Origin: Holophagales bacterium
Lineage (GTDB): Bacteria > Acidobacteriota > Thermoanaerobaculia > Multivoradales > UBA5704
NCBI GenBank assembly: GCA_031390755.1
Contig: JANMTS010000035.1
Span: forward strand, 28,758-92,757
Reading direction: 5' to 3'
Length of the DNA: 64,000 nucleotides
A program made the position numbers and the translations under genes. The stretch's first letter is position 1; every line of letters starts with the position of its first letter. The notes under the pieces are model-generated. The model worked only from the letters and a program-made list of their open reading frames with translations. It ran no database searches and had not been told where the DNA came from. This document shows positions 6,480-26,189 of this stretch, piece after piece.

Positions 6480-6550
6480 GATTTCGCCGCGGGACCAAAC
6501 ATTCCCCCGCGGCCCGTGTCTACAGACATTGGCATAGCGCCAACGCCTCG

Positions 6551-6593
6551 CCGGGAGAAGGGGGACGACCTCCCCTCCCGGCCCTTTTTTTGT
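6551..6593 (+). terminator. Putative rho-independent terminator after the M28 peptidase gene (GC hairpin ccgggagaaggggg..tcccctcccgg followed by T7)
   Basis: Hairpin plus ccctttttttg seen in sequence. It lies between convergent genes (ends 6479 and 6594). Confidence 0.45.
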
Positions 6594-8396
6594 CTACGGG
6601 ATCGACTGGATTTCGCGGACGATCCGGAAGCCGGTGTTCTTGTTGTTGCGGTCACGCCCGCGAGGGCTTCTGGTCGAGGGCTGACAGTTTACCGGGGAGG
6701 AATCGAAAGCGCCTCCTGCCCTGATGGGCTCGCCCTGACCGCCCATCAAGCCAAGGCTCGGTGGCTGGTCGACCCACTCCCACACGTTGCCGAGCATGTC
6801 GTAAAGACCCCAATCGCTATTGCGGAAGGTGCCGGTCGGAGCGAGCTCGCTGTAGTCGTCGCCACGCAGGCAGTTCCCTCCTTCGCCATCCCCTGGGCCA
6901 CGGGCGGCGTATTCCCATTCCTCTTTCGTGGGGAGCCTGTACGCATTCGTCTGCTCCAACGCGTTCAACCTGCGGAAGAAATCCTTCGTCTCTACATAGG
7001 TCACGCTCCCCATCGGCAGGTCGTCTCCGCGCGGCTCCATGTCCTTCGCCGTGTTGGTCCCCATGATCTCCTCCCACTGCTTCTGGCTCACTTCGGTAGT
7101 TCCCATGCAAAAGGGCCTCGGGATGGTAACTTCGATCGGCGGCTCACCTTTCTTGCCGGAGCCCATCAGAAACTTTCCTGCCGGGATCCATGCCATTTCC
7201 ATGTCGACACCTACAGGAGACGGGCAATGGTTCTTCCAGGGAGCCCACATCCAGATACCAATCGAGAGGGCCAGAACCGACACGGCGAAGCCGATTCTTG
7301 CCCAGGGAATGGGTGGCCGAAAAAGCCGTCCGTCGGCAGCCCCTAGAAACAGGACAGGGATCGCCCAGTCCAGATCCTTTCCATTTCGCCGGACGTAAAG
7401 CGATCGGCGCGCTTCAGTCACAGCACGGTCCACAGGAGAACCTTTCGCCAACTCGCGGTAGAACCGCGACGCAAAAACAACGGCTGAATCGTCAGGAATT
7501 CTGGCTTGCATGGCCACCACAGCCGGTATCTCTTCTCTAATGAGGTTCTGTGCAACTCCCGAGAAGCGGTCGTCTCGACCTGCGCAGGCCCCTTCGCAAG
7601 CATTGAGGATCACCAGCCTCATGGAGGGGTGGGCCCGGAGCACGAAGGCAAGCGTTGCTCCAGACACAGCCACCGAGGGTTCCTCGCTGTCGCGGAGCAG
7701 GAGAACGCCTTCTCCCGTCGGTGCGAGGGAGCCGTGCCCCATGAAATGGAGCACGTGGAAGACGCCCTGAGCCAGAGCTTCGGCAAGCTCAGAGAGCGTC
7801 GGATTGTCAAGGCGTTTGATGTCCAGCTTTCTCCTCTGGGCAAGTGGAGCGAGACCCTGCCTGATCTCATCCCACTCGGTCTCCACGTCGAGTGGAACCT
7901 GAGATGCCACGTTTGAAACGACGACGAGGATACTCAGGGGGCCGGCCATTCGGACCGTGTCGACAGGTTTTGGAGATCCCAGGTACCGTACGATCGGGCT
8001 TCGTCTCCTCAAAGCGAGGAAGTCCCGTGAATCGTGCAACAGCTCGACAGGCCAATCGGACGTATCCGCGGCGCCCGAGCGAAATCGAAGACGCAGGCCC
8101 TGGCCTCTCTTGAGCCCATGCAGGGCGAGAGCTCGAAGCAGCGCAACATCTCCTGAAAAGACCGAGTCGAAGAGCCTCCTGCCAACTCTCTGAGCTGTTA
8201 CAGCTCCAGATTTGGGGTCAGAGAAGGCCAATCGGACCTGATCTAGCTCTTCCGCAGAGAGGGGATTGGTGATCACCGCGGACTTCTCCACTCCATCAGG
8301 AAGATGTCCTTGAACGCGATACCCAAGGCCCGCAGGGTTGTGGGCGATGGAAAGAAAAAGATCCGCATACCTCCAGACGAGCCGCTTCTCAACCAT
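6594..8396 (-). CDS. CHAT-domain (caspase-like clan CD) protein fused through a TM helix to a C-terminal FGE-sulfatase (formylglycine-generating-enzyme / SUMF1-like) domain
   Basis: 600 aa. Has the CHAT His/Cys dyad context VLHFMGHGSL ... MRLVILNACEGACAG and a hydrophobic helix IGFAVSVLALSIGIWMWAPW. The C-terminal FGE-fold motifs are MAWIPAGKFLMGS, YRLPTKEEWEYAARG, GNVWEWV and GGAF. An 8-nt overlap joins it to the upstream ORF. Confidence 0.75.
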   Translation of the reverse strand: MVEKRLVWRYADLFLSIAHNPAGLGYRVQGHLPDGVEKSAVITNPLSAEELDQVRLAFSDPKSGAVTAQRVGRRLFDSVFSGDVALLRALALHGLKRGQGLRLRFRSGAADTSDWPVELLHDSRDFLALRRRSPIVRYLGSPKPVDTVRMAGPLSILVVVSNVASQVPLDVETEWDEIRQGLAPLAQRRKLDIKRLDNPTLSELAEALAQGVFHVLHFMGHGSLAPTGEGVLLLRDSEEPSVAVSGATLAFVLRAHPSMRLVILNACEGACAGRDDRFSGVAQNLIREEIPAVVAMQARIPDDSAVVFASRFYRELAKGSPVDRAVTEARRSLYVRRNGKDLDWAIPVLFLGAADGRLFRPPIPWARIGFAVSVLALSIGIWMWAPWKNHCPSPVGVDMEMAWIPAGKFLMGSGKKGEPPIEVTIPRPFCMGTTEVSQKQWEEIMGTNTAKDMEPRGDDLPMGSVTYVETKDFFRRLNALEQTNAYRLPTKEEWEYAARGPGDGEGGNCLRGDDYSELAPTGTFRNSDWGLYDMLGNVWEWVDQPPSLGLMGGQGEPIRAGGAFDSSPVNCQPSTRSPRGRDRNNKNTGFRIVREIQSIP

Positions 8397-9300
8397 CGTT
8401 CAGGCTCCACAGGACCGCTTCCCAGAAGTCCCGGACCATCGCGTTTTCGACGACCTCGACCTCCTCGCTGACCGACAGGAGAACCTCCCGGGCCTCCCGG
8501 TGGCGGCCACAGGTGCATAGCGCCGAGGCCGCACGTGCCGCGCACTCGACTCGATCGTCCACCTTGACGGCACAGCTCATCGCGGCGCGGAAGGACTCGG
8601 CCGCGGCCTCCCGCTCCCCCGCCTCTTCCTCCCGATGCCCGAGCCACATGCGAATCTCCAGAGCCAGCGCCCGCAGCGCATCCTGGGGAACCCGCTCCGA
8701 AGCCCGCATCGCTTCCGTCAGCGTGGCTGCCTTCCGGACTAGAGCGATGCACCGCCGACGGCGCTCGGGCTTCTCGTCCAGCAGAAGCATCACATTGCCC
8801 AGCTTGAACCGCAGCAGGATCGCCTCGTAGAGCGAAAACGTATCCTTCCCTGCCGTCGCTTCATGAGCCAGCGCGTAGAGGGCCGCCGCCTGGGGCAGGC
8901 TCCTGTCAGTCTCGAAAACCGCTTCGGCCAGCAGAAACGAATGCCGGCGGATGCGGTCGCGCTCGCCGGGAGGAAGGCCAAGCTGGTCGAGCCGTTCCCG
9001 CGCCGCGCCCTCCAAGAGATCCCGGAGCCGCGACAGATCGGAAGACTCCAGGTCCAACAGCTGATCGCCTTCGAGGTTCAAACGCTCCAGCACGGCTTCA
9101 GCCAGCTCCGAGCCCGACGCGTGGTTGGCCAGAGCGTCCCAGTAACCGTGCTCCATCTCCGTATCGGGAACCCGGCGCGGCCCGAGCCAGGCTCTCAGCG
9201 CTTTCAGCGTGCCGGTCATGTCTCCCGAGAGGAGACGGTCCCAGTCAGGAGAGGAGGCTGTGTGGAAGCCCTCCTGATGGTGGCCCTTTCCGTTCTGCAT
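8389..9300 (-). CDS. Hypothetical all-alpha (TPR-like?) protein inside the CHAT/peptidase operon
   Basis: 303-aa ORF with no recognisable motif. It is directly adjacent (no gap) to the upstream peptidase gene and overlaps the downstream CHAT-FGE gene. Confidence 0.5.
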   Translation of the reverse strand: MQNGKGHHQEGFHTASSPDWDRLLSGDMTGTLKALRAWLGPRRVPDTEMEHGYWDALANHASGSELAEAVLERLNLEGDQLLDLESSDLSRLRDLLEGAARERLDQLGLPPGERDRIRRHSFLLAEAVFETDRSLPQAAALYALAHEATAGKDTFSLYEAILLRFKLGNVMLLLDEKPERRRRCIALVRKAATLTEAMRASERVPQDALRALALEIRMWLGHREEEAGEREAAAESFRAAMSCAVKVDDRVECAARAASALCTCGRHREAREVLLSVSEEVEVVENAMVRDFWEAVLWSLNDG

Positions 9301-10743
9301 TCAATCGAGGCTCCGCAGCATGCGCTTCTTCTTCCCGGCCGTGCGCAGCCTCACTGCGGGATCGCCGACGACGACGTAGTTTCGAGCGTCCTGGCTCTCA
9401 ATCCAGAGCTCGGCGAGGGCCTTTCGGTCCAGAGTGTCTTCAAGAAAGGCCTTCTTGAGTAGCTCTCCCAGAACCGTCGAGATGTCGGAGAATCGCTGGT
9501 TGAGCGGCTCCATGGCCCAGCCAACCCGGCCTCCACCAAGCAGCCGATTCATGGTCTCGACGAACGGGAGGATCTGTGAGCCCGTATCGCGCCAGAGAAA
9601 AGACTGCTGCCACACCTGCTCCACGTGGCCGATGACGGCCAGGGCTCCGCCATCCGGGTGGCTGAGCAGACGCTGCGCCAGGCTCGACACAAAGGGCTTC
9701 GGCGACACTGCCCGCATGTCTTCGACTCTGGAGGCAAAGTCATTGTTGACCGGAGTACCCGCGCTGTTGCAGGCAAACAGAAAGGCGATGAGGCCCAGCA
9801 AGCGGGCAGGCCCGTCAAGGTCAGCGGCCGAAAAGACATGCTCCGGCCCGGCAGCTTCCGTACACGGCCAGTCTTGGCATACGAGGGCGCCCTGGTGACT
9901 CCGTTGGCGAACATGTCCGTTCTTGTAGTAGACACCGTGACCAGCCGAGAACAGGAGATCCGGCGTCTCGTCTCCTCCGAGAAGTCGCCGCAGTCGCTCT
10001 TTGGTAGCCTTCTCTGCCAGGTAGGTCTCACACTGACAGCCAGGCTTGCCATCAAGCTCTTCGATCAGCGGCTTCAGCAATCGCTCATTGCTGACCTCGG
10101 TCCCCGCGTCCTGACAGGGGCCAAAAAAGGCGACCTTTGGACTCGGCTTGAACTCGTCCTCGGCTGCAACAACTGCCGCAGCGTAGGCAGCGAAAGCCTC
10201 TGGCGTCTCGAAGTGAACCCGCCCCACGGCATGGTGGTGATCGAGCCCATATTGGAATTCGAAGGGGATGTCCTCCGGACTGCCCACCAGAAGCAGGTAA
10301 TAGGGAACCTTCTTCGGATCGACTCTGCCGGGGCCAGCTCCCATGCGGGCGAGAAAATCCAGTTTGTCCTCGCCGCGGACATAACCCTTCTCGCCTGCGT
10401 AGATCTTGTAGAGAGAGCCTGCCTGTTCTCTGCGAAGCTTGAGCAGGGGCTCAAGAGCGTCGAGGCTCTCGGAGGCGAAGCGATCGGAGCCGGACACGAC
10501 GACGCCCCATCCGGCCTGGCTCAGATCGTTGGCGTCGACTCCGTCCTTGAGCTCGCGAACACGCCGCTTCTTCGACTTCGCGAGCCGCTCTAAGAGGATC
10601 TCCTCAACCTCGCGGGGGGAAACCGGTCGGCCGGTGTCTCCATCAATGCCACCCGCGCCGAGATTTGTCCTTGTGATCATCCGTGCACCTCCTGCGCAGG
10701 TCGCGGCAGGCGGGCCTTCACCCGCCTGCCAGCGGTTGGTCAC
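9301..10743 (-). CDS. Gingipain-like (peptidase C25-like) clan-CD cysteine peptidase, cytoplasmic (no signal peptide)
   Basis: 480 aa from GTG at 10743 (possible later start at MITRTNLG). Sequence blocks resemble the gingipain catalytic domain: YYLLLVGSPEDIPFEF (cf. YVLLIGDHKDIP), LLFSAGHGVYYKNGH (catalytic His) and LIAFLFACNSAGTP (catalytic Cys). GTGA overlap with the upstream small ORF. Confidence 0.6.
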   Translation of the reverse strand: MTNRWQAGEGPPAATCAGGARMITRTNLGAGGIDGDTGRPVSPREVEEILLERLAKSKKRRVRELKDGVDANDLSQAGWGVVVSGSDRFASESLDALEPLLKLRREQAGSLYKIYAGEKGYVRGEDKLDFLARMGAGPGRVDPKKVPYYLLLVGSPEDIPFEFQYGLDHHHAVGRVHFETPEAFAAYAAAVVAAEDEFKPSPKVAFFGPCQDAGTEVSNERLLKPLIEELDGKPGCQCETYLAEKATKERLRRLLGGDETPDLLFSAGHGVYYKNGHVRQRSHQGALVCQDWPCTEAAGPEHVFSAADLDGPARLLGLIAFLFACNSAGTPVNNDFASRVEDMRAVSPKPFVSSLAQRLLSHPDGGALAVIGHVEQVWQQSFLWRDTGSQILPFVETMNRLLGGGRVGWAMEPLNQRFSDISTVLGELLKKAFLEDTLDRKALAELWIESQDARNYVVVGDPAVRLRTAGKKKRMLRSLD

Positions 10744-10955
10744 TTGCCTTCGGTGGGATAACTCTGATTGCCCTTCGTGGTGGCGTCATCCTGAGCCGGA
10801 GCGGGTACTGCGCCAGCGACGGGATAGCTCTGGTTTCCCTTCCCTGTGCCGTCATCTTGGGCGGGTGCGGGATCTTCCCCCGGCGTGGGGTAGCTCTTGT
10901 TTCCCTTGGCCGTGACGTCACTCTGCGGATCCAACTGCGTGGTCTTGCCCTCCAT
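10740..10955 (-). CDS. Small hydrophilic tandem-repeat protein (3 x about 22-aa repeat KGN[KQ]SYP..PAPAQDD..), first gene of the peptidase operon
   Basis: 71 aa: MEGKTTQLDPQSDVTAKGNKSYPTPGEDPAPAQDDGTGKGNQSYPVAGAVPAPAQDDATTKGNQSYPTEGK. The DNA shows a 66-bp tandem repeat x3. Its stop overlaps the peptidase GTG start. Confidence 0.45.
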   Translation of the reverse strand: MEGKTTQLDPQSDVTAKGNKSYPTPGEDPAPAQDDGTGKGNQSYPVAGAVPAPAQDDATTKGNQSYPTEGK

Positions 10956-11117
10956 TGGGATCTCCTTTCAAGCATGGCGGATGCGATTCAGTCGCCCCGG
11001 TCATTCGAATAGACACCAGCTGCAGATAATTGTTGGGGGGCTGACAAACCTGGAGCGCCGCATCAACGCTCGTAGCGGGTGTCGGCGGTGTGGCAGGAGT
11101 CGTCGCTTGGAGGAATT

Positions 11118-13394
11118 TCAGTAAGGCTCGCCCTGCAGCAAGAACGCGGCCCAGGCCTTGGGCAAGCTTAGCTGGGACGATCTTTCGCCACGCAGGGACA
11201 ATTGAGCAGCCCGGAGCGCCTCTGAGGGCGGGAGCTTCTCGACCAGCATCTGATGATAAAACCGCTCCATCAATTCCTTCGTCCAGTCGTCCCGGACATT
11301 CCATAGACTGACCACAACTCGCTTGGCCCCGGCATGGAGGAAGGCCCGCGTCATTCCCATCGGCCCCTCGCCTCGCACCCTGGGGCCCAGGCCGCTTCCA
11401 CAGGCGCTCAGGACGACCAATTCCGCAGGAAATTTGAGCTTGTAGATCTCCGAAGCTCGAAGCAGGCCCTCCTGCAACACTCCCCGGTGGTCGTAGCGAG
11501 ACAGCACGAGCCCGCTGAAGTCAGGGTGGTCGTTGTAGATGTGATGCGTGCTGATGTGCAGGATCTGGTAGAGCGACAGGGACGGATCCATGGCCGTAGC
11601 ACGGTTGGCCTCGAATCCAATCGCCAGAAATCGGTCGGAGGGCGGAACCAACTTGAGGATGGCGTCAGCCTCGTCAGCCGTATCGGGCAGTCGTGACAAA
11701 CTGCCATAGTCCAACTCTCCCACCAGCCCCCGACTCTGGCTTCGAGAGTCTATTTTGACGCCGTTCAACCTCCGGTCGTCCCGGTTGAAGACGGCGTCCG
11801 TCAGCAACGCCAGTTGTTTGGGTGCCGGCTGCCGGCCCGAGAGGTTCCGTCGCATCTCCACTTGATAGGAGGCTGAGGGCACGTAACTGATGATGTGTCG
11901 ATCGATCAGTTCGCCCCGAGTCGAGGGCAGCGCGGCAAATGGGATCTGATGCAGGGCACCGTCTGCTCGAACCAGGAGTCGCTTGCGGAGCAAGGGCTCT
12001 GCGGCAGCCGGAAGGATGGCGAGGGCCAGTTCCCTGGCCTTCCAACCACGGTTCCTGTCACTCGACAGCTCTCTCCACGTCTCCGCGGCCAGGCCTTCGA
12101 TGACGTTCCGGCCTTTCTTCAGGTCGAAGGCATCGATCCGGTCCGGATTGACCACCCACAGGTAGCTGCCACGCTCTCCGAGCGAATACGAGAGGAGAGT
12201 CGTCTCCTTGTCCAGAAGCTTTCGCTGAATCTCCTGGAGACGGCTCCCCTCTTCTCTACCAAAATCGTCCAATAGAGACCGTGAGTGCGACAGGTCGCTG
12301 ATCTCGAAGGCCTTCACGGCTCGACTGACATCCCGGTCGCGCCGATAGAGCTCCATGAAGAGTGTGACATAGAGGTCGTAGTACTTCTGCCGGAAGGAGA
12401 AGAAGCCGACCCGCGCCCCGACGTCTTCAAGGCCTGTGCGGCTTGCCTCAACTAGATCGATCGATCGCTTCAGCGAGGCCAGGGCATCCTCATATCGCCC
12501 GAGGTCGCGGAGGACCTCGGCTCGGCCGAAGAGCATAGACGCCTGGGCCAGAGGCTCCGGAACGGATTCAAGAAGCCTATAGGCTTCGTCAAATAGACGA
12601 AGGGCCTCGGATTCTCTCCCCTGGACATCCTCCAGATGAGCAAGATCCGCCAGGGAGAAAGCCTCCCAGCGAAGGCTCCCGGCTCGTCTTGCTGTGGATG
12701 CAGCCTCCTCCAAACCCTGTCTTGCCAGGGTCATCTTGCCTTGATCTCGGTAGACATTTCCGCGTCGCTGGAGGGTGCGAGCCCGGTCTTCCTGGTCCTG
12801 AGCCACTCTCAAGCCGTTCTCATAAGCCCACAAAGCTTTATCCAGCTTGTCGAGATCGTGGTACGCGAGACCCAAGCCATCGTAAACCATGCCCAGCACG
12901 TCCCGCCGAGATTCCACCTGGCTGAGCTTTCGAGCCTGCTCGTAGTACTTCAGGGCTTCTTCACTCAAACCGACCGTCAAGAGAAGTTGCCCGAGATCGC
13001 AGTTCGTCAGCGCCTGTTCAGAGGGTTCGTTTACCGAGGGCCAGATTTGAAGCGCTCGTCGATATTCGGTGAACGCAGTCTGAAGCTCGCCGCGATAGAA
13101 GGCGAGCGAGCCGTACCCATTGTGGGCCATTGCCAGCCCTCCCTGATCCCCTGCGGCCTCGGCCAACCTGAAGGCACGATCGTAGTGATCCTTTGCCTGT
13201 CTGGCGTCGACCTCTTCCAGCCGACGACCTGCCGCAATCTCTTTTCGGACTTCCGAGCTGCGGATCGGCCTCTTCGAGGTCGCCGGGCGTGAGGCAGGTG
13301 AGGGAGGAGTCCGAGAGTAGGGCTCGACGGGGGCGGTCGCCAAGCACGCCAGCAGCACTCCCGCAAGCGTGAATTTACAGCGGTTAAAGAGCAT
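11118..13394 (-). CDS. Secreted TPR-repeat protein with C-terminal CHAT domain
   Basis: 758 aa with a signal peptide (LAGVLLACLATAPVEP) and multiple TPR-like repeats (..ALKYYEQARKL.., ..ALWAYENGLRV..). The C-terminal CHAT region has LYQILHISTHHIY (His) and ELVVLSACGSGLG (Cys). Confidence 0.75.
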   Translation of the reverse strand: MLFNRCKFTLAGVLLACLATAPVEPYSRTPPSPASRPATSKRPIRSSEVRKEIAAGRRLEEVDARQAKDHYDRAFRLAEAAGDQGGLAMAHNGYGSLAFYRGELQTAFTEYRRALQIWPSVNEPSEQALTNCDLGQLLLTVGLSEEALKYYEQARKLSQVESRRDVLGMVYDGLGLAYHDLDKLDKALWAYENGLRVAQDQEDRARTLQRRGNVYRDQGKMTLARQGLEEAASTARRAGSLRWEAFSLADLAHLEDVQGRESEALRLFDEAYRLLESVPEPLAQASMLFGRAEVLRDLGRYEDALASLKRSIDLVEASRTGLEDVGARVGFFSFRQKYYDLYVTLFMELYRRDRDVSRAVKAFEISDLSHSRSLLDDFGREEGSRLQEIQRKLLDKETTLLSYSLGERGSYLWVVNPDRIDAFDLKKGRNVIEGLAAETWRELSSDRNRGWKARELALAILPAAAEPLLRKRLLVRADGALHQIPFAALPSTRGELIDRHIISYVPSASYQVEMRRNLSGRQPAPKQLALLTDAVFNRDDRRLNGVKIDSRSQSRGLVGELDYGSLSRLPDTADEADAILKLVPPSDRFLAIGFEANRATAMDPSLSLYQILHISTHHIYNDHPDFSGLVLSRYDHRGVLQEGLLRASEIYKLKFPAELVVLSACGSGLGPRVRGEGPMGMTRAFLHAGAKRVVVSLWNVRDDWTKELMERFYHQMLVEKLPPSEALRAAQLSLRGERSSQLSLPKAWAAFLLQGEPY

Positions 13395-14184
13395 TGATCT
13401 CGAAAGGCTTCTCGCTGATTAAGTGTTCTCCTGGATCATTCGCGAGCCGGCCGTAGGTCTTTGCCAGATAACGCCCTGCGGGAAGGGTTCCGCCAGGGAT
13501 GACGAATGAACCACTTGGCGAAGAGTTACCCTTGAAAGAGGTTCTCCAGACCTCGCGTTCACCTTGCAGGATCCGCCCTTCAAACAGGGCGTACTCATCC
13601 TTGGCATAAGATTGAACTGTGATGGCAACGTTTCCAGGGAAGAGATCCAAGTCCTCCTCTGACAATCCTCCTCGGGTCGGCGTAGTATCCAGCACATTGA
13701 TGGCCCCACCCTCGACCGTAGACCTTGGGGTGAGATTCAATCCACACAGGAGCCCTAGCCCCCCGGCTACAACCAAGGCAGCCGCTTGAGCCCAAAGGCG
13801 AGCCTTACGCCTCGATGGCGCTTCTGGGGATGGAGCCGTCACGGGAGCGCGGAACGGTAGCACCGCCGCAGCCTGCTCTTCCACCTCTCTCCTCTCCGCC
13901 GCCAGCTTCGCCTTCAACGCCTGCCAGTCCTCCTCCACCTCCGCATCGGTAAGCTCCGGCACTCCCGCAGGCGGGGCCAGGGTGGCGAAGCCGGCCAGAT
14001 CGAGGAGGAGGTCGCTGCAGTGCCGGCAGAGCGCCAGGTGCTGGCGGACGCGGGCTTCGGCCTCCGTGGGGAGGGAGCCTTCGTGGTAGGCGGTCAGCTC
14101 CCGGGGGGTGGCGTGCTCGGTGCTGCGCTCACGTTCCGCAAGGTGGCGGATCGCAGCGTTGAGGGATGGTTTTTCTTGGCTCAC
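13384..14184 (-). CDS. Anti-sigma factor (zf-HC2 putative zinc-finger, single TM)
   Basis: Motif HLALCRHCSDLL (zf-HC2) and a TM segment LWAQAAALVVAGGLGLLCGL. A likely GTG start at 14184 overlaps the sigma-factor stop. Its 3' end overlaps the TPR-CHAT start by 11 nt. Confidence 0.6.
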   Translation of the reverse strand: MSQEKPSLNAAIRHLAERERSTEHATPRELTAYHEGSLPTEAEARVRQHLALCRHCSDLLLDLAGFATLAPPAGVPELTDAEVEEDWQALKAKLAAERREVEEQAAAVLPFRAPVTAPSPEAPSRRKARLWAQAAALVVAGGLGLLCGLNLTPRSTVEGGAINVLDTTPTRGGLSEEDLDLFPGNVAITVQSYAKDEYALFEGRILQGEREVWRTSFKGNSSPSGSFVIPGGTLPAGRYLAKTYGRLANDPGEHLISEKPFEINAL

Positions 14185-14185
14185 G

Positions 14186-14770
14186 TCAATACTCTTCACT
14201 TGTAAAATAATTTCCCAGCCGGTCCCGGAGGTGCTGCCTTGCTTGATACAAGTGCGCCTTGACGGTCTCAATGGAGACGCTCATCTCCTCCGCGATCTCA
14301 CGATACTTCAAATCGCCGTCCACGCGCAGGAACACAGCCTTCTTCATCTGCGGCGGAAGCTCCGCCAGGGCGTCGCGAAGAAGCTTCTCCCGCTCGCGCC
14401 CCAGGATGGCCTCCAGCGGATCGTTTTCGCCTTCGCCGTCCAGGGCCACCGTTCCCGCTTCGGACTCCTCCAGGGGGATCTCCTCCCGGTCCCTCTTCAG
14501 GGTCCCTTGAGTCCGAAGCTGGTTCTTGTAGAGATTCGCCGCGATCTGGAACAGCCAGGTTTCGATGCTGCTGTCCCCGCGGAAGCTCTCTCTATTTCTA
14601 TAGACCCGAAGAAATGTCTCTTGGGCGAGGTCGCGGCTCTCATCCACCGAAAATCCCCGGCGGAGAAAGAAGGAGACGACCGGGCGGTGGTATCGCCGGA
14701 AGAGATCCTCAGCCACTACACCTGGAGTGTTGTCGTCGGATCCGAGGTCGTCCGTCATAACCATCGACAC
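14186..14770 (-). CDS. ECF-family RNA polymerase sigma-70 factor
   Basis: 194 aa with region 2 (FLRVYRNRESFRGDSSIETWLFQIAANLYKN) and region 4 (LPPQMKKAVFLRVDGDLKYREIAEEMSVSIETVKAHLYQARQHLR). Confidence 0.85.
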   Translation of the reverse strand: MSMVMTDDLGSDDNTPGVVAEDLFRRYHRPVVSFFLRRGFSVDESRDLAQETFLRVYRNRESFRGDSSIETWLFQIAANLYKNQLRTQGTLKRDREEIPLEESEAGTVALDGEGENDPLEAILGREREKLLRDALAELPPQMKKAVFLRVDGDLKYREIAEEMSVSIETVKAHLYQARQHLRDRLGNYFTSEEY

Positions 14771-25556: not shown

Positions 25557-25823
25557 GTCGCAATCCCACCGTGCTGATCAGGGCATTTCCGACGATGGTT
25601 ACATCAACGGAAGGGGGTACGTCGCTTGGAGCGAGTCGCAATCCCACCGTGCTGACCAGGGCATTTCCGACTTTTCGGCTTTCTGGTTGCGAAGTTCGTT
25701 GCCGCGTTGAAGAAGTCGCAATCCCACCGTGCTGATCAGGGCATTTCCGACACGGTTGCGCATTGGATTCCCGTTACGCGTCAGGCGTCGCAATCCCACC
25801 GTGCTGATCAGGGCATTTCCGAC
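25557..25823. CRISPR. Orphan CRISPR mini-array: 4 x 37-bp repeats (GTCGCAATCCCACCGTGCTGATCAGGGCATTTCCGAC; repeat 2 has one SNP), 3 unique spacers of 41, 43 and 35 bp
   Basis: Repeats at 25557-25593, 25635-25671, 25715-25751 and 25787-25823, read directly. No cas genes are in the window. A lower-GC flank at 25824-26150 could be a leader. Confidence 0.65.
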
Positions 25824-26189
25824 TCCGGCCTCGCCAACCCACTGATTCCAAAGGGTCCAAACCGCCTGATTTTCTGACCCCTCGAAATCGCCCCCTCGAA
25901 GGGGCCTTTCCATGCCGTCGGGCGACTCTCGCTTTCCATCTCAAACCTCTCAGTCCATTCAAGATACCGGCCTGGTTCTGAAGTGCCCGCCAAAAGGGAA
26001 CATCGGCGCAGGCATGATTCTTGTCAGGTCCGGGCTCTCGCTTGTCAAAGAACGGCGCAATCTAATCCTACAGGGAGAGACACCTCTTGGGGAAGATTTG
26101 TTGGCCCAGCCACTTCCAGGGCTGAGGAGGGTTGGGGGTGGCCCACCGAACCGGGGTCGCGCGCCTGCGGCGCTTCTGACCCCGGCCTT

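Follow-up and report, generated by a model that had tools for sequence, protein, structure and literature searches.

In the genome of a Holophagales bacterium, a small open reading frame (ORF) of 71 amino acids (aa), whose product carries three copies of a short K..Y motif, lies directly upstream of a gene for a gingipain-like cysteine peptidase (assembly GCA_031390755.1, contig JANMTS010000035.1, positions 28,758 to 92,757; this whole stretch of 64,000 nucleotides is hereafter called the window). The small ORF is a real protein-coding gene under purifying selection, and selection acts on the peptide motif. Its downstream neighbors encode the peptidase, a solenoid protein resembling tetratricopeptide repeats (TPR) and a CHAT-FGE protein. 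Our best reading, which we hold tentatively and with slightly less than even confidence, is that the small protein may be a multivalent linear-motif ligand of the proteins encoded in this cassette, serving the peptidases either as a dedicated substrate or as a regulator of the pseudosubstrate type.

That the small ORF codes for a protein is evident from its substitution patterns. The protein (MEGKTTQLDPQSDVTAKGNKSYPTPGEDPAPAQDDGTGKGNQSYPVAGAVPAPAQDDATTKGNQSYPTEGK) is encoded by DNA in which Tandem Repeats Finder identified a repeat with a period of 66 bp at positions 10755..10907 (2.3 copies, 76% matches, score 157). At the protein level this corresponds to two full units of 22 aa and a partial third unit of 13 aa, or approximately 2.6 copies; the full units follow the pattern T-x-K-G-N-(K/Q)-S-Y-P-x4-5-P-A-P-A-Q-D-D-x, and the last motif ends the chain (…YPTEGK-stop). 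The proportions of synonymous (pS) and non-synonymous (pN) differences between the first two units are 0.65 and 0.17, respectively, so that the variation between copies is mostly synonymous, and in the KGNQSYP and PAPAQDD segments nearly every difference is silent. Likewise, the comparison with the orthologue in locus L006 yielded a pS of 0.58 and a pN of 0.19, and a ratio of non-synonymous to synonymous substitutions (dN/dS) of approximately 0.2. Taken over both comparisons, dN/dS is approximately 0.13-0.2 in the frame of the small ORF, whereas reading the same strand in its two alternative frames yields 0.6-2.7, and substitutions cluster at the third codon positions of the small-ORF frame both in the repeats and relative to the closest orthologue. 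In locus L020, the 20 residues encoded by unit 2 are identical to those of unit 4, although the DNA of the two units differs at six synonymous sites (and at no non-synonymous one). Furthermore, a Shine-Dalgarno sequence, AAGGAG, is located 6 nt before the ATG codon of the small ORF.

A preliminary description of this DNA, which was made from the sequence by a model, had proposed three repeats of 22 aa in a protein that is under selection and has neither a signal peptide nor a transmembrane (TM) segment. Selection and the 66-bp repeat with its mostly silent variation are confirmed by these numbers, but the copy number is lower and the 22-aa unit is not what is conserved. Hydropathy analysis of the 71-aa protein also revealed no signal peptide and no TM segment: the maximum over 19 residues is -0.24, and only 5 of the 71 residues are I, L, V, F, M, W or C. 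Proline or glycine makes up 25% of the protein. Relative to the charge-hydropathy boundary, all 12 members of the family described below lie on the side of disorder, with proline plus glycine contents of 12-31%.

These members come from 12 distinct related acidobacterial loci, which we reached through exact-protein look-ups of proteins closely related to the peptidase or to the 303-aa TPR-like protein, counting duplicate loci only once (L012 is identical to L013, L014 to L015 and L017 to L018). A small ORF with the K..Y motif was located directly upstream of the peptidase gene in 12 of 12 loci, among which the peptidases are only 47-66% identical to one another, and gene callers independently predicted the ORF in 11 of them. 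It is 71 aa long in the window, 47 aa in L023, 50 aa in L001 and L006, 52 aa in L014, 53 aa in L012, 54 aa in L019, 55 aa in L016, L017 and L022, 92 aa in L021 and 131 aa in L020. No small ORF was found upstream of more distant peptidase homologues (32-49% identity; from Chloroflexi, Alphaproteobacteria and others) for which upstream sequence was at hand, and genome and metagenome scans based on the peptidase returned mostly such distant loci without the small ORF. The preliminary description had suggested a search for homologous small ORFs beside related peptidases, and had named conservation of the DNA repeat without the ORF as the outcome that would speak against its proposal; the outcome was the reverse, with the ORF kept and the repeat not. 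Because the ORF is retained at the same position in all 12 loci while the DNA repeat is not, a functional tie between the small protein and the peptidase cassette is well supported.

The conserved part of the protein is the short motif K-x(2-4)-Y-x-x-(E/G), or, in a broader form, K-x(2-4)-Y-x-x-(E/G/A). The motif is usually preceded by glycine or a polar residue and followed by acidic residues, and its K and Y are invariant across the members, except that F replaces Y in two units of L020 (examples are KGNQSYP, KGTQSYA, KGAYGV, GKSGYP, KTNYPV and KGDGSYD). In nearly all members the final copy is placed at the extreme C-terminus, with endings such as …YPTEGK, …YSVEG, …YSAEGGD, …YDAEGE and …YPVEAE. 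Most members carry two copies, from which it follows that the three-repeat form in the window is a local expansion of a two-motif ancestor. Three copies were also found in L021, in which there is no detectable tandem repeat in the DNA, six in L020, where they are built on a different unit of 60 bp, and one clear copy in L001. The differences in copy number arose by independent expansions of 66-bp and 60-bp units.

Neither Pfam (with E up to 10) nor NCBIfam nor PADLOC yielded a match for the small protein or for the other members of its family. With the 71-aa protein as the query, a word-indexed search across 5.8 billion proteins returned only P0001, and P0004 was the one true relative gained when 1.84 billion representatives were searched by profile; four other proteins matched in the profile search, P0002, P0003, P0005 and P0006, were rejected as unrelated repeat proteins. 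The exact 71-aa protein is absent from a collection of 15 billion proteins, and no paralogue was found elsewhere in the 64-kb window. The family is new, in that it matches nothing described, but its probable class, that of small co-encoded partners of bacterial caspase-like proteases, is known.

The sequences that flank the small gene are also conserved. Promoters recognized by extracytoplasmic function (ECF) sigma factors have an AAC-containing -35 element and a GTC-containing -10 element, and an element of this type precedes the small ORF (Table 1). The spacing from AAC to GTGTCT is an identical 15 nt in 12 of 12 loci, and the element is located approximately 55-65 nt before the ATG codon in 11 loci and 43 nt before it in L020; a scan of the region revealed no promoter of the sigma-70 type. 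When transcription is taken to start where the -10 element suggests, every leader is predicted to fold as a 5' hairpin that leaves the Shine-Dalgarno sequence, (A)AAGGAG, free, and this sequence is conserved in all loci. In the window, the upstream TPR-CHAT gene and the promoter motif are separated (11040..11117, minus strand) by approximately 70 nt more than in L006 and L001.

Downstream of the stop codon, the window contains a GC-rich hairpin with a minimum free energy of -31.7 kcal/mol (z = -3.7). A hairpin was found at this place in all 10 loci that were folded, at distances of 2-15 nt from the stop codon and with free energies of -21 to -32 kcal/mol (z from -1.4 to -5.3). Since four different stem sequences are in use, it is the structure of the hairpin that is conserved rather than its sequence, and in most loci, though not in the window, it is followed by a pyrimidine-rich or T-rich tract. 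The hairpin may serve as an attenuator or an mRNA stabilizer; as a stabilizer or partial terminator, it would raise the output of the small gene over that of the enzymes.

The position of this hairpin also bears on the start of the peptidase gene. The small ORF was correctly placed as the first gene of the peptidase operon in the preliminary description, according to which its stop codon overlaps a GTG start codon of the peptidase. The GTGA overlap is present in the sequence (GTG at 10743..10741, TGA at 10742..10740), but gene callers start the peptidase at the ATG codon at 10680, after an AGGAGG Shine-Dalgarno sequence, and the order of stop codon, GC-rich hairpin, Shine-Dalgarno sequence and ATG recurs in most of the 12 loci, the callers differing in L017 and L021. 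The overlapping GTG is thus very probably not the peptidase start, and with the start at ATG 10680 the two genes are approximately 59 nt apart with the hairpin between them.

Table 1. Location of the small gene, its repeat units and signals, and the surrounding genes in the window.
Feature	Position	Strand	Description
Small repeat protein gene	10955..10740	-	ATG ORF, 71 aa, acidic, predicted disordered, three K-G-N-(K/Q)-S-Y-P motifs
Repeat unit 1	10848..10913	-	Residues 15-36, TAKGNKSYPTPGEDPAPAQDDG
Repeat unit 2	10782..10847	-	Residues 37-58, TGKGNQSYPVAGAVPAPAQDDA
Partial repeat unit 3	10743..10781	-	Residues 59-71, TTKGNQSYPTEGK; C-terminal motif copy kept in nearly all family members
ECF-type promoter-like element	11035..11010	-	CAACAA-N-GTGTCTA (AAC-N15-GTGTCTA); -35 AAC at ~11034-11032, -10 GTGTCTA at 11016-11010
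Predicted 5' leader	10956..11003	-	~48 nt; 5'-proximal hairpin; unpaired Shine-Dalgarno sequence AAGGAG at 10967-10962
GC-rich hairpin	10702..10734	-	GGCAGGCGGG-tgaa-…CCCGCCTGCC; starts 5 nt past the stop codon, before the peptidase gene
Gingipain-fold cysteine peptidase	9301..10680	-	C25-like, clan CD; 459 aa; predicted cytoplasmic; dyad His248 (GHG) and Cys304 (FAC)
TPR-like all-alpha solenoid	8389..9300	-	303 aa; lineage-specific; no sequence-family match
CHAT-TM-FGE-sulfatase protein	6594..8396	-	600 aa; one TM helix (residues 368-386); CHAT predicted cytoplasmic, FGE predicted periplasmic
Upstream regulatory module	11118..14770	-	ECF sigma, zf-HC2 anti-sigma, TPR-CHAT (Pfam)
ECF sigma factor	14770..14186	-	
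zf-HC2 anti-sigma factor	14271..13384	-	295 aa; one TM helix
TPR-CHAT protein	13394..11118	-	758 aa; signal-peptide-like N-terminus
Second AAC-N15-GTGTCTA copy and candidate small RNA	6498..6592	+	Flanked by the stop codons of the M28 peptidase gene (6479) and the CHAT-FGE gene (6594)

The downstream gene has the profile, the fold and the His-Gly … Ala-Cys dyad of clan CD, family C25. The Pfam profile Peptidase_C25 (PF01364) matched the 459-aa protein weakly but above threshold (26.8 bits against a cut-off of 23), and a Foldseek search of the PDB with an AlphaFold2 model of the peptidase (mean confidence score, pLDDT, of 89.4) returned RgpB (E 4e-9) and Kgp (2e-7), then separase, SAVED-CHAT and the Craspase TPR-CHAT protein. 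Both catalytic residues are nearly invariant in an alignment of 50 sequences, and the protein contains no hydrophobic segment. The family to which it belongs has more than 4000 homologues, which are uncharacterised, and is architecturally diverse: distant homologues occur as tandem duplicates in L003 (10..4079) and as a 1012-aa fusion with an N-terminal extension in L005 (4345..7383), and many others carry C-terminal extensions of 150-300 aa. The peptidase is only 54% identical between the window and its closest relative, L006 (5177..6523), compared with 93% for the sigma factor, 86% for the TPR protein and 72% for the small protein, and it is closer to the peptidase in L014 (66%). These identities suggest that the peptidase gene has either evolved at an accelerated rate or been replaced by recombination.

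The 303-aa protein always adjoins the peptidase in the loci examined. Its AlphaFold2 model (pLDDT 89) best matched the peptide-binding TPRs of LGN/Pins in the PDB, with weaker matches to RapH and other Rap proteins (E ~1e-2). Its homologues form 68 clusters of at least 47% identity and 255-306 aa, all from the same lineage, and this lineage distribution is shared with the small ORF. We also considered the possibility that it is homologous to the C-terminal extensions of the longer peptidases, and rejected this since no homology was found. The third downstream gene, which encodes the CHAT-TM-FGE protein (Pfam CHAT 8.6e-25, FGE-sulfatase 6.6e-26), keeps its place in every complete locus. A cytoplasmic location is predicted for the small protein, the peptidase, the TPR protein and the CHAT domain, the FGE domain being the exception among the parts of the cassette.

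The trio of genes for the sigma factor, the anti-sigma factor and the TPR-CHAT protein precedes the small ORF wherever the loci reach far enough, although it is fragmented in L019 and L022. In L022 (ENA ERZ25039516, contig_16119), most genes are broken up, the sigma factor, peptidase and CHAT-FGE genes each being in two pieces, while the small ORF is intact, and this fragmentation is probably due to frameshift errors in the assembly rather than to pseudogenization. The chromosomal context is kept across the loci in the order PDH-E1 (aceE), YceI, the block, M28, DUF2071 and Iso_dh, which indicates that the block is vertically inherited and not a mobile island. Elsewhere, the window contains a CRISPR-like array at 25557..25823 with four copies of a 37-nt repeat (GTCGCAATCCCACCGTGCTGATCAGGGCATTTCCGAC) spaced by 72-80 nt.

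How might these proteins work together? Since a disordered protein with multiple motif copies is encoded together with a TPR solenoid and clan-CD proteases, a role as a ligand of these proteins is, to us, the most economical reading. One hypothesis is that the periplasmic TPR-CHAT protease controls the anti-sigma factor such that the ECF sigma factor is released, as in a split version of the DdvA switch discussed below, and that the cassette would then be transcribed from its own ECF-type promoter, most likely by this adjacent sigma factor. The small protein would be the first product of the four-gene cassette and probably the most abundant one, since the post-stop hairpin may stabilize or partly terminate a short transcript and thereby provide the small protein in stoichiometric excess over the enzymes. 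The K..Y motifs could dock in an extended form on the TPR groove, on the active-site cleft of a clan-CD peptidase, or on both. Docked in this manner, the protein may either be a dedicated substrate or act as a pseudosubstrate "safety catch" that restrains the cytoplasmic peptidases until it has been consumed.

Several observations weigh against the ligand hypothesis or lend it no support. Pairwise-identity correlations in the style of mirror trees between the small protein and each of its neighbors were weak and uninformative in the 8 complete loci, and the motif was not found fused to any peptidase homologue, hence there is no Rosetta-stone support. The profile of the peptidase family did not reach the gingipain sequences in the PDB, and the P1 specificity could not be derived from it. 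The hairpin in the window has no U-tract and was not called by a simple terminator scan. The AAC-N15-GTGTCTA motif was not found upstream of the ECF sigma gene, and the assignment of the cassette promoter to this sigma factor, although the most likely one, is indicated solely by adjacency. Finally, since the locus is vertically inherited, the cassette may function in a stress response of the housekeeping kind and not in conflict.

We also considered alternative explanations for the small gene, several of which agree with a part of the observations. The preliminary description had proposed that the protein is a cognate substrate of the peptidase or a precursor, such as that of a signaling peptide or of a ribosomally synthesized and post-translationally modified peptide (RiPP), or else an inhibitor or a pro-domain delivered in trans. 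A cognate partnership with the peptidases is likely, in line with the conserved linkage in 12 of 12 loci, but a RiPP is not: no modifying enzyme or exporter gene that would indicate one is located in the conserved neighborhood. A pro-domain in trans is not supported either, as the pro-domains of gingipains are folded while the small protein is predicted to be disordered. More broadly, a precursor with multiple cores, from which the peptidase would release short peptides as a RiPP-like product or as a TPR-read signal of the Rap/Phr type, within the cell or after export, would account for the similar tandem units in variable copy number (2 to 6), for the peptidase immediately downstream and for the adjacent TPR solenoid, the fold of which weakly resembles Rap receptors; a hairpin behind a precursor-like gene would furthermore yield excess transcript. 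We nevertheless consider it unlikely, given that the small protein has no signal peptide, that the conserved neighborhood contains no exporter, importer or modifying enzyme, that TPRs of the LGN type are a better match than Rap, and that a motif in which K and Y alone are conserved, at variable spacing, does not define a core peptide. A related and even less probable idea, drawn by analogy with polyubiquitin, is that the protein could be a poly-unit precursor from which the gingipain-fold enzyme, working as a transpeptidase, would excise K..Y units for use as a small tag ligated onto target proteins or as a purely intracellular messenger read by the TPR protein. The C25-type enzyme PorU and legumain-type ligases of clan CD do work as transpeptidases. 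If true, this would represent a new bacterial system for peptide tagging or peptide second messengers that is switched on by an ECF sigma factor.

The highly hydrophilic and disordered composition of the small protein, rich in Gly, Pro, Asp and Lys, the alternative-sigma-type promoter and the origin of the host lineage from soil and sediment, according to the source names, are reminiscent of stress hydrophilins, and the protein could be an ECF-induced protectant, similar to LEA or YciG proteins, that merely shares the transcript of the peptidase. Hydrophilins are, however, usually widespread and present in multiple copies, whereas homologues of the small protein are extremely rare among 1.8-5.8 billion proteins and paralogues are lacking in the 64-kb window. 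Nor would a bulk protectant be expected to have a sharply defined K..Y motif that is placed at the C-terminus. The position of the small gene directly before that of the peptidase is strictly kept in 12 of 12 loci, and neither the window protein nor P0001 matched KGG/YciG, CsbD or LEA at E up to 10, which together make this explanation quite unlikely. It is also rather improbable that the small ORF is a cis-acting leader, the translation of which controls the hairpin and thereby read-through into the peptidase gene, with a peptide that has no function in trans. In every locus folded, the hairpin is close enough to the stop codon for a terminating ribosome to cover the distance, and T-rich or pyrimidine-rich tracts follow the hairpin in several loci, both of which speak for such a mechanism. 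But with 47-131 aa the ORF much exceeds the usual length of leader peptides, specific residues of the motif are under purifying selection, whole units are kept through synonymous change and the motif has been expanded independently; in addition, the strong Shine-Dalgarno sequence and the stabilizing 5' hairpin suggest a high protein output, and the hairpin in the window has no U-tract. The suggestion that the ORF is not a gene, and merely arises from tandemly repeated DNA in an intergenic stretch rich in GC, is effectively refuted. Genomes with a high GC content carry many spurious ORFs, several of which overlap the small ORF, and the exact window protein is missing from the collection of 15 billion proteins. 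Selection is nevertheless frame-specific, the Shine-Dalgarno sequence is conserved, gene callers predicted the ORF independently in 11 loci and it is kept in 12, some of which have no tandem repeat in their DNA.

A second copy of the AAC-N15-GTGTCTA motif was identified in seven loci (the window, L006, L012, L016, L017, L020 and L021), where it lies immediately beyond the M28 peptidase gene, which is convergent. Next come 25 conserved nucleotides (aTTGGCATAGCGCCAACGCCTCG) and a strong terminator (CCGGGAG…CTCCCGGCCCTTTTTTT), and we consider this site to be a candidate for an ECF-dependent small RNA (sRNA) of approximately 65 nt. The presence of a second conserved site with the same motif supports the interpretation of the motif as a regulon promoter. 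The candidate had no match in Rfam, a sub-threshold hit to bxd_2 being spurious, and showed no pairing with the translation-initiation region of the small ORF beyond that of shuffled controls. A third match to the motif, at 26102 on the minus strand of the window, has a spacer of 16 nt and no gene downstream, and was judged to be due to chance. In L014, L016, L017, L021 and L022, the sigma gene itself has another conserved element in front of it, …GCCAACnCTTG…N…GCTAGGAT…, for which reason the sigma factor appears not to be autoregulated from a promoter of the cassette type.

Caspase-like proteases in bacteria, including CHAT, gingipain-fold and PCaspase enzymes, are emerging as regulated switches in cell fate and defence, and the control of proteases by disordered linear motifs is familiar from eukaryotes, with securin and caspase decoys as examples. 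The partners described for bacterial clan-CD proteases in the literature cited here are folded effectors, sigma-factor-related proteins and inhibitors (10.1101/2023.06.23.546230; 10.1101/2025.11.14.688446; PMC7159879; PMC11506125). The small-protein family would add a different type of partner to this list, namely a disordered and multivalent protein with short linear motifs, a mode of control that this literature does not report for the clan-CD proteases of bacteria. The proposed circuit would run from the periplasmic TPR-CHAT protein via the anti-sigma factor and the ECF sigma factor to the AAC-N15-GTGTCTA promoter, from which it would deliver the motif protein together with the TPR protein, the candidate sRNA and two peptidase domains in the cytoplasm. 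With about a dozen recognizable members and an invariant core of two residues, recognition of the motif by gingipain-like enzymes is readily testable.

The cassette can be compared with several known systems. The combination of a cytoplasmic TPR receptor and a small peptide-precursor gene is characteristic of the Rap-Phr and RRNPP systems, and Rap proteins are among the fold matches of the 303-aa protein. Phr precursors, however, are secreted via a signal peptide and re-imported, whereas the small protein has no signal peptide and there is no linked Opp or exporter gene. As for RiPPs, Pfam and NCBIfam scans of the neighboring genes revealed only peptidase, TPR, CHAT, FGE, sigma and anti-sigma domains, none of them of the rSAM, YcaO, LanM or P450 kind, the orthologous loci carry this gene set as well, and the motif provides no conserved core, since K and Y alone are invariant and are spaced 3 to 5 residues apart. 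A tag of the Pup or ubiquitin type, which would end in GGQ/GGE or GG and be linked to a ligase such as PafA/Dop or E1/E2, is not indicated by the C-termini (…EGK, …VEG, …EGGD, …EAE), and the locus contains no gene of a ligase family.

In a broad sense, the cassette resembles protease-effector modules, some of which include protease-FGE fusions, where an adjacent partner is unlocked by site-specific cleavage (10.1101/2025.11.14.688446; PMC7159879). As in Pepco/Trypco, EACC1 and CATASP, a small gene is located beside a gene for a caspase-like or trypsin-like protease that is often fused to FGE (PMC7159879; 10.1101/2025.11.14.688446), and the small ORF shares the position of EACC1, immediately 5' of a clan-CD peptidase, in 12 of 12 loci. 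However, EACC1 has a single TM helix, which the window protein lacks (and it had no NCBIfam or PADLOC match), and Pepco is a folded beta-barrel pore of approximately 117 aa that is activated by cleavage of its C-terminal tail, whereas the window protein is predicted to be disordered and has no family match. Since it contains no hydrophobic segment, the small protein cannot be a pore-former of the EACC1 or Pepco type.

The upstream module resembles DdvA of Myxococcus xanthus, in which a zinc anti-sigma domain is fused to a periplasmic TPR-CHAT domain that has been proposed to trigger the release of an ECF sigma factor (PMC11506125, PMC6061681). Similar to DdvA-DdvS, the genes directly upstream of the cassette encode an ECF sigma factor, a zinc-finger anti-sigma factor with one TM helix and a periplasmic TPR-CHAT protein, which plausibly switch on the cassette promoter. 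The domains that form one polypeptide in DdvA are split over two adjacent genes in the window, for which reason the module is no strict member of the DdvA type, although it would work in a like manner. Furthermore, the active site of DdvA is incomplete, whereas the window TPR-CHAT protein appears, as read from its sequence, to keep the His and Cys residues, and the regulon would consist of the peptidase cassette and the candidate sRNA rather than of CBASS and CRISPR systems as for DdvA-DdvS.

In the type III-B CRISPR-associated cascade of Haliangium ochraceum, PCi is both cleaved by PCaspase and inhibits it (10.1101/2023.06.23.546230). The operon for PCi, PCaspase and SAVED-CHAT likewise combines two clan-CD proteases, one of which is a CHAT protein and the other caspase/gingipain-like, with a sigma factor and a small co-encoded protein. 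It differs in that PCi is predicted to be a folded inhibitor of the CI-2 type, whereas the window protein is predicted to be disordered, is repetitive and has no homology to it; no Pfam match to CI-2 (potato inhibitor I) was obtained at E up to 10, and the composition is of low complexity and disordered. Moreover, the window peptidase has a gingipain fold (C25) and not that of C14 as in the PCaspase system, and the cassette is controlled by an ECF sigma/anti-sigma pair and has no CRISPR/SAVED sensor. Among the systems described, this cascade is nevertheless the closest to the cassette in its logic, as a small partner that tunes or reports the activity of a protease is also what we propose for the window protein.

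A eukaryotic analogue is securin, a disordered protein that binds in an extended form along a TPR-like helical region and fills the active site of separase as a pseudosubstrate. The separase-securin complex (5u1t) is among the matches of the peptidase model, and a TPR solenoid is encoded alongside. The likeness is by analogy only: there is no sequence relationship, the TPR and protease domains are separate polypeptides in the cassette, and the motif is repeated 2 to 6 times. As a functional class rather than one defined by homology, pseudosubstrates of the securin type are intrinsically disordered, and this feature is predicted for all 12 members of the small-protein family.

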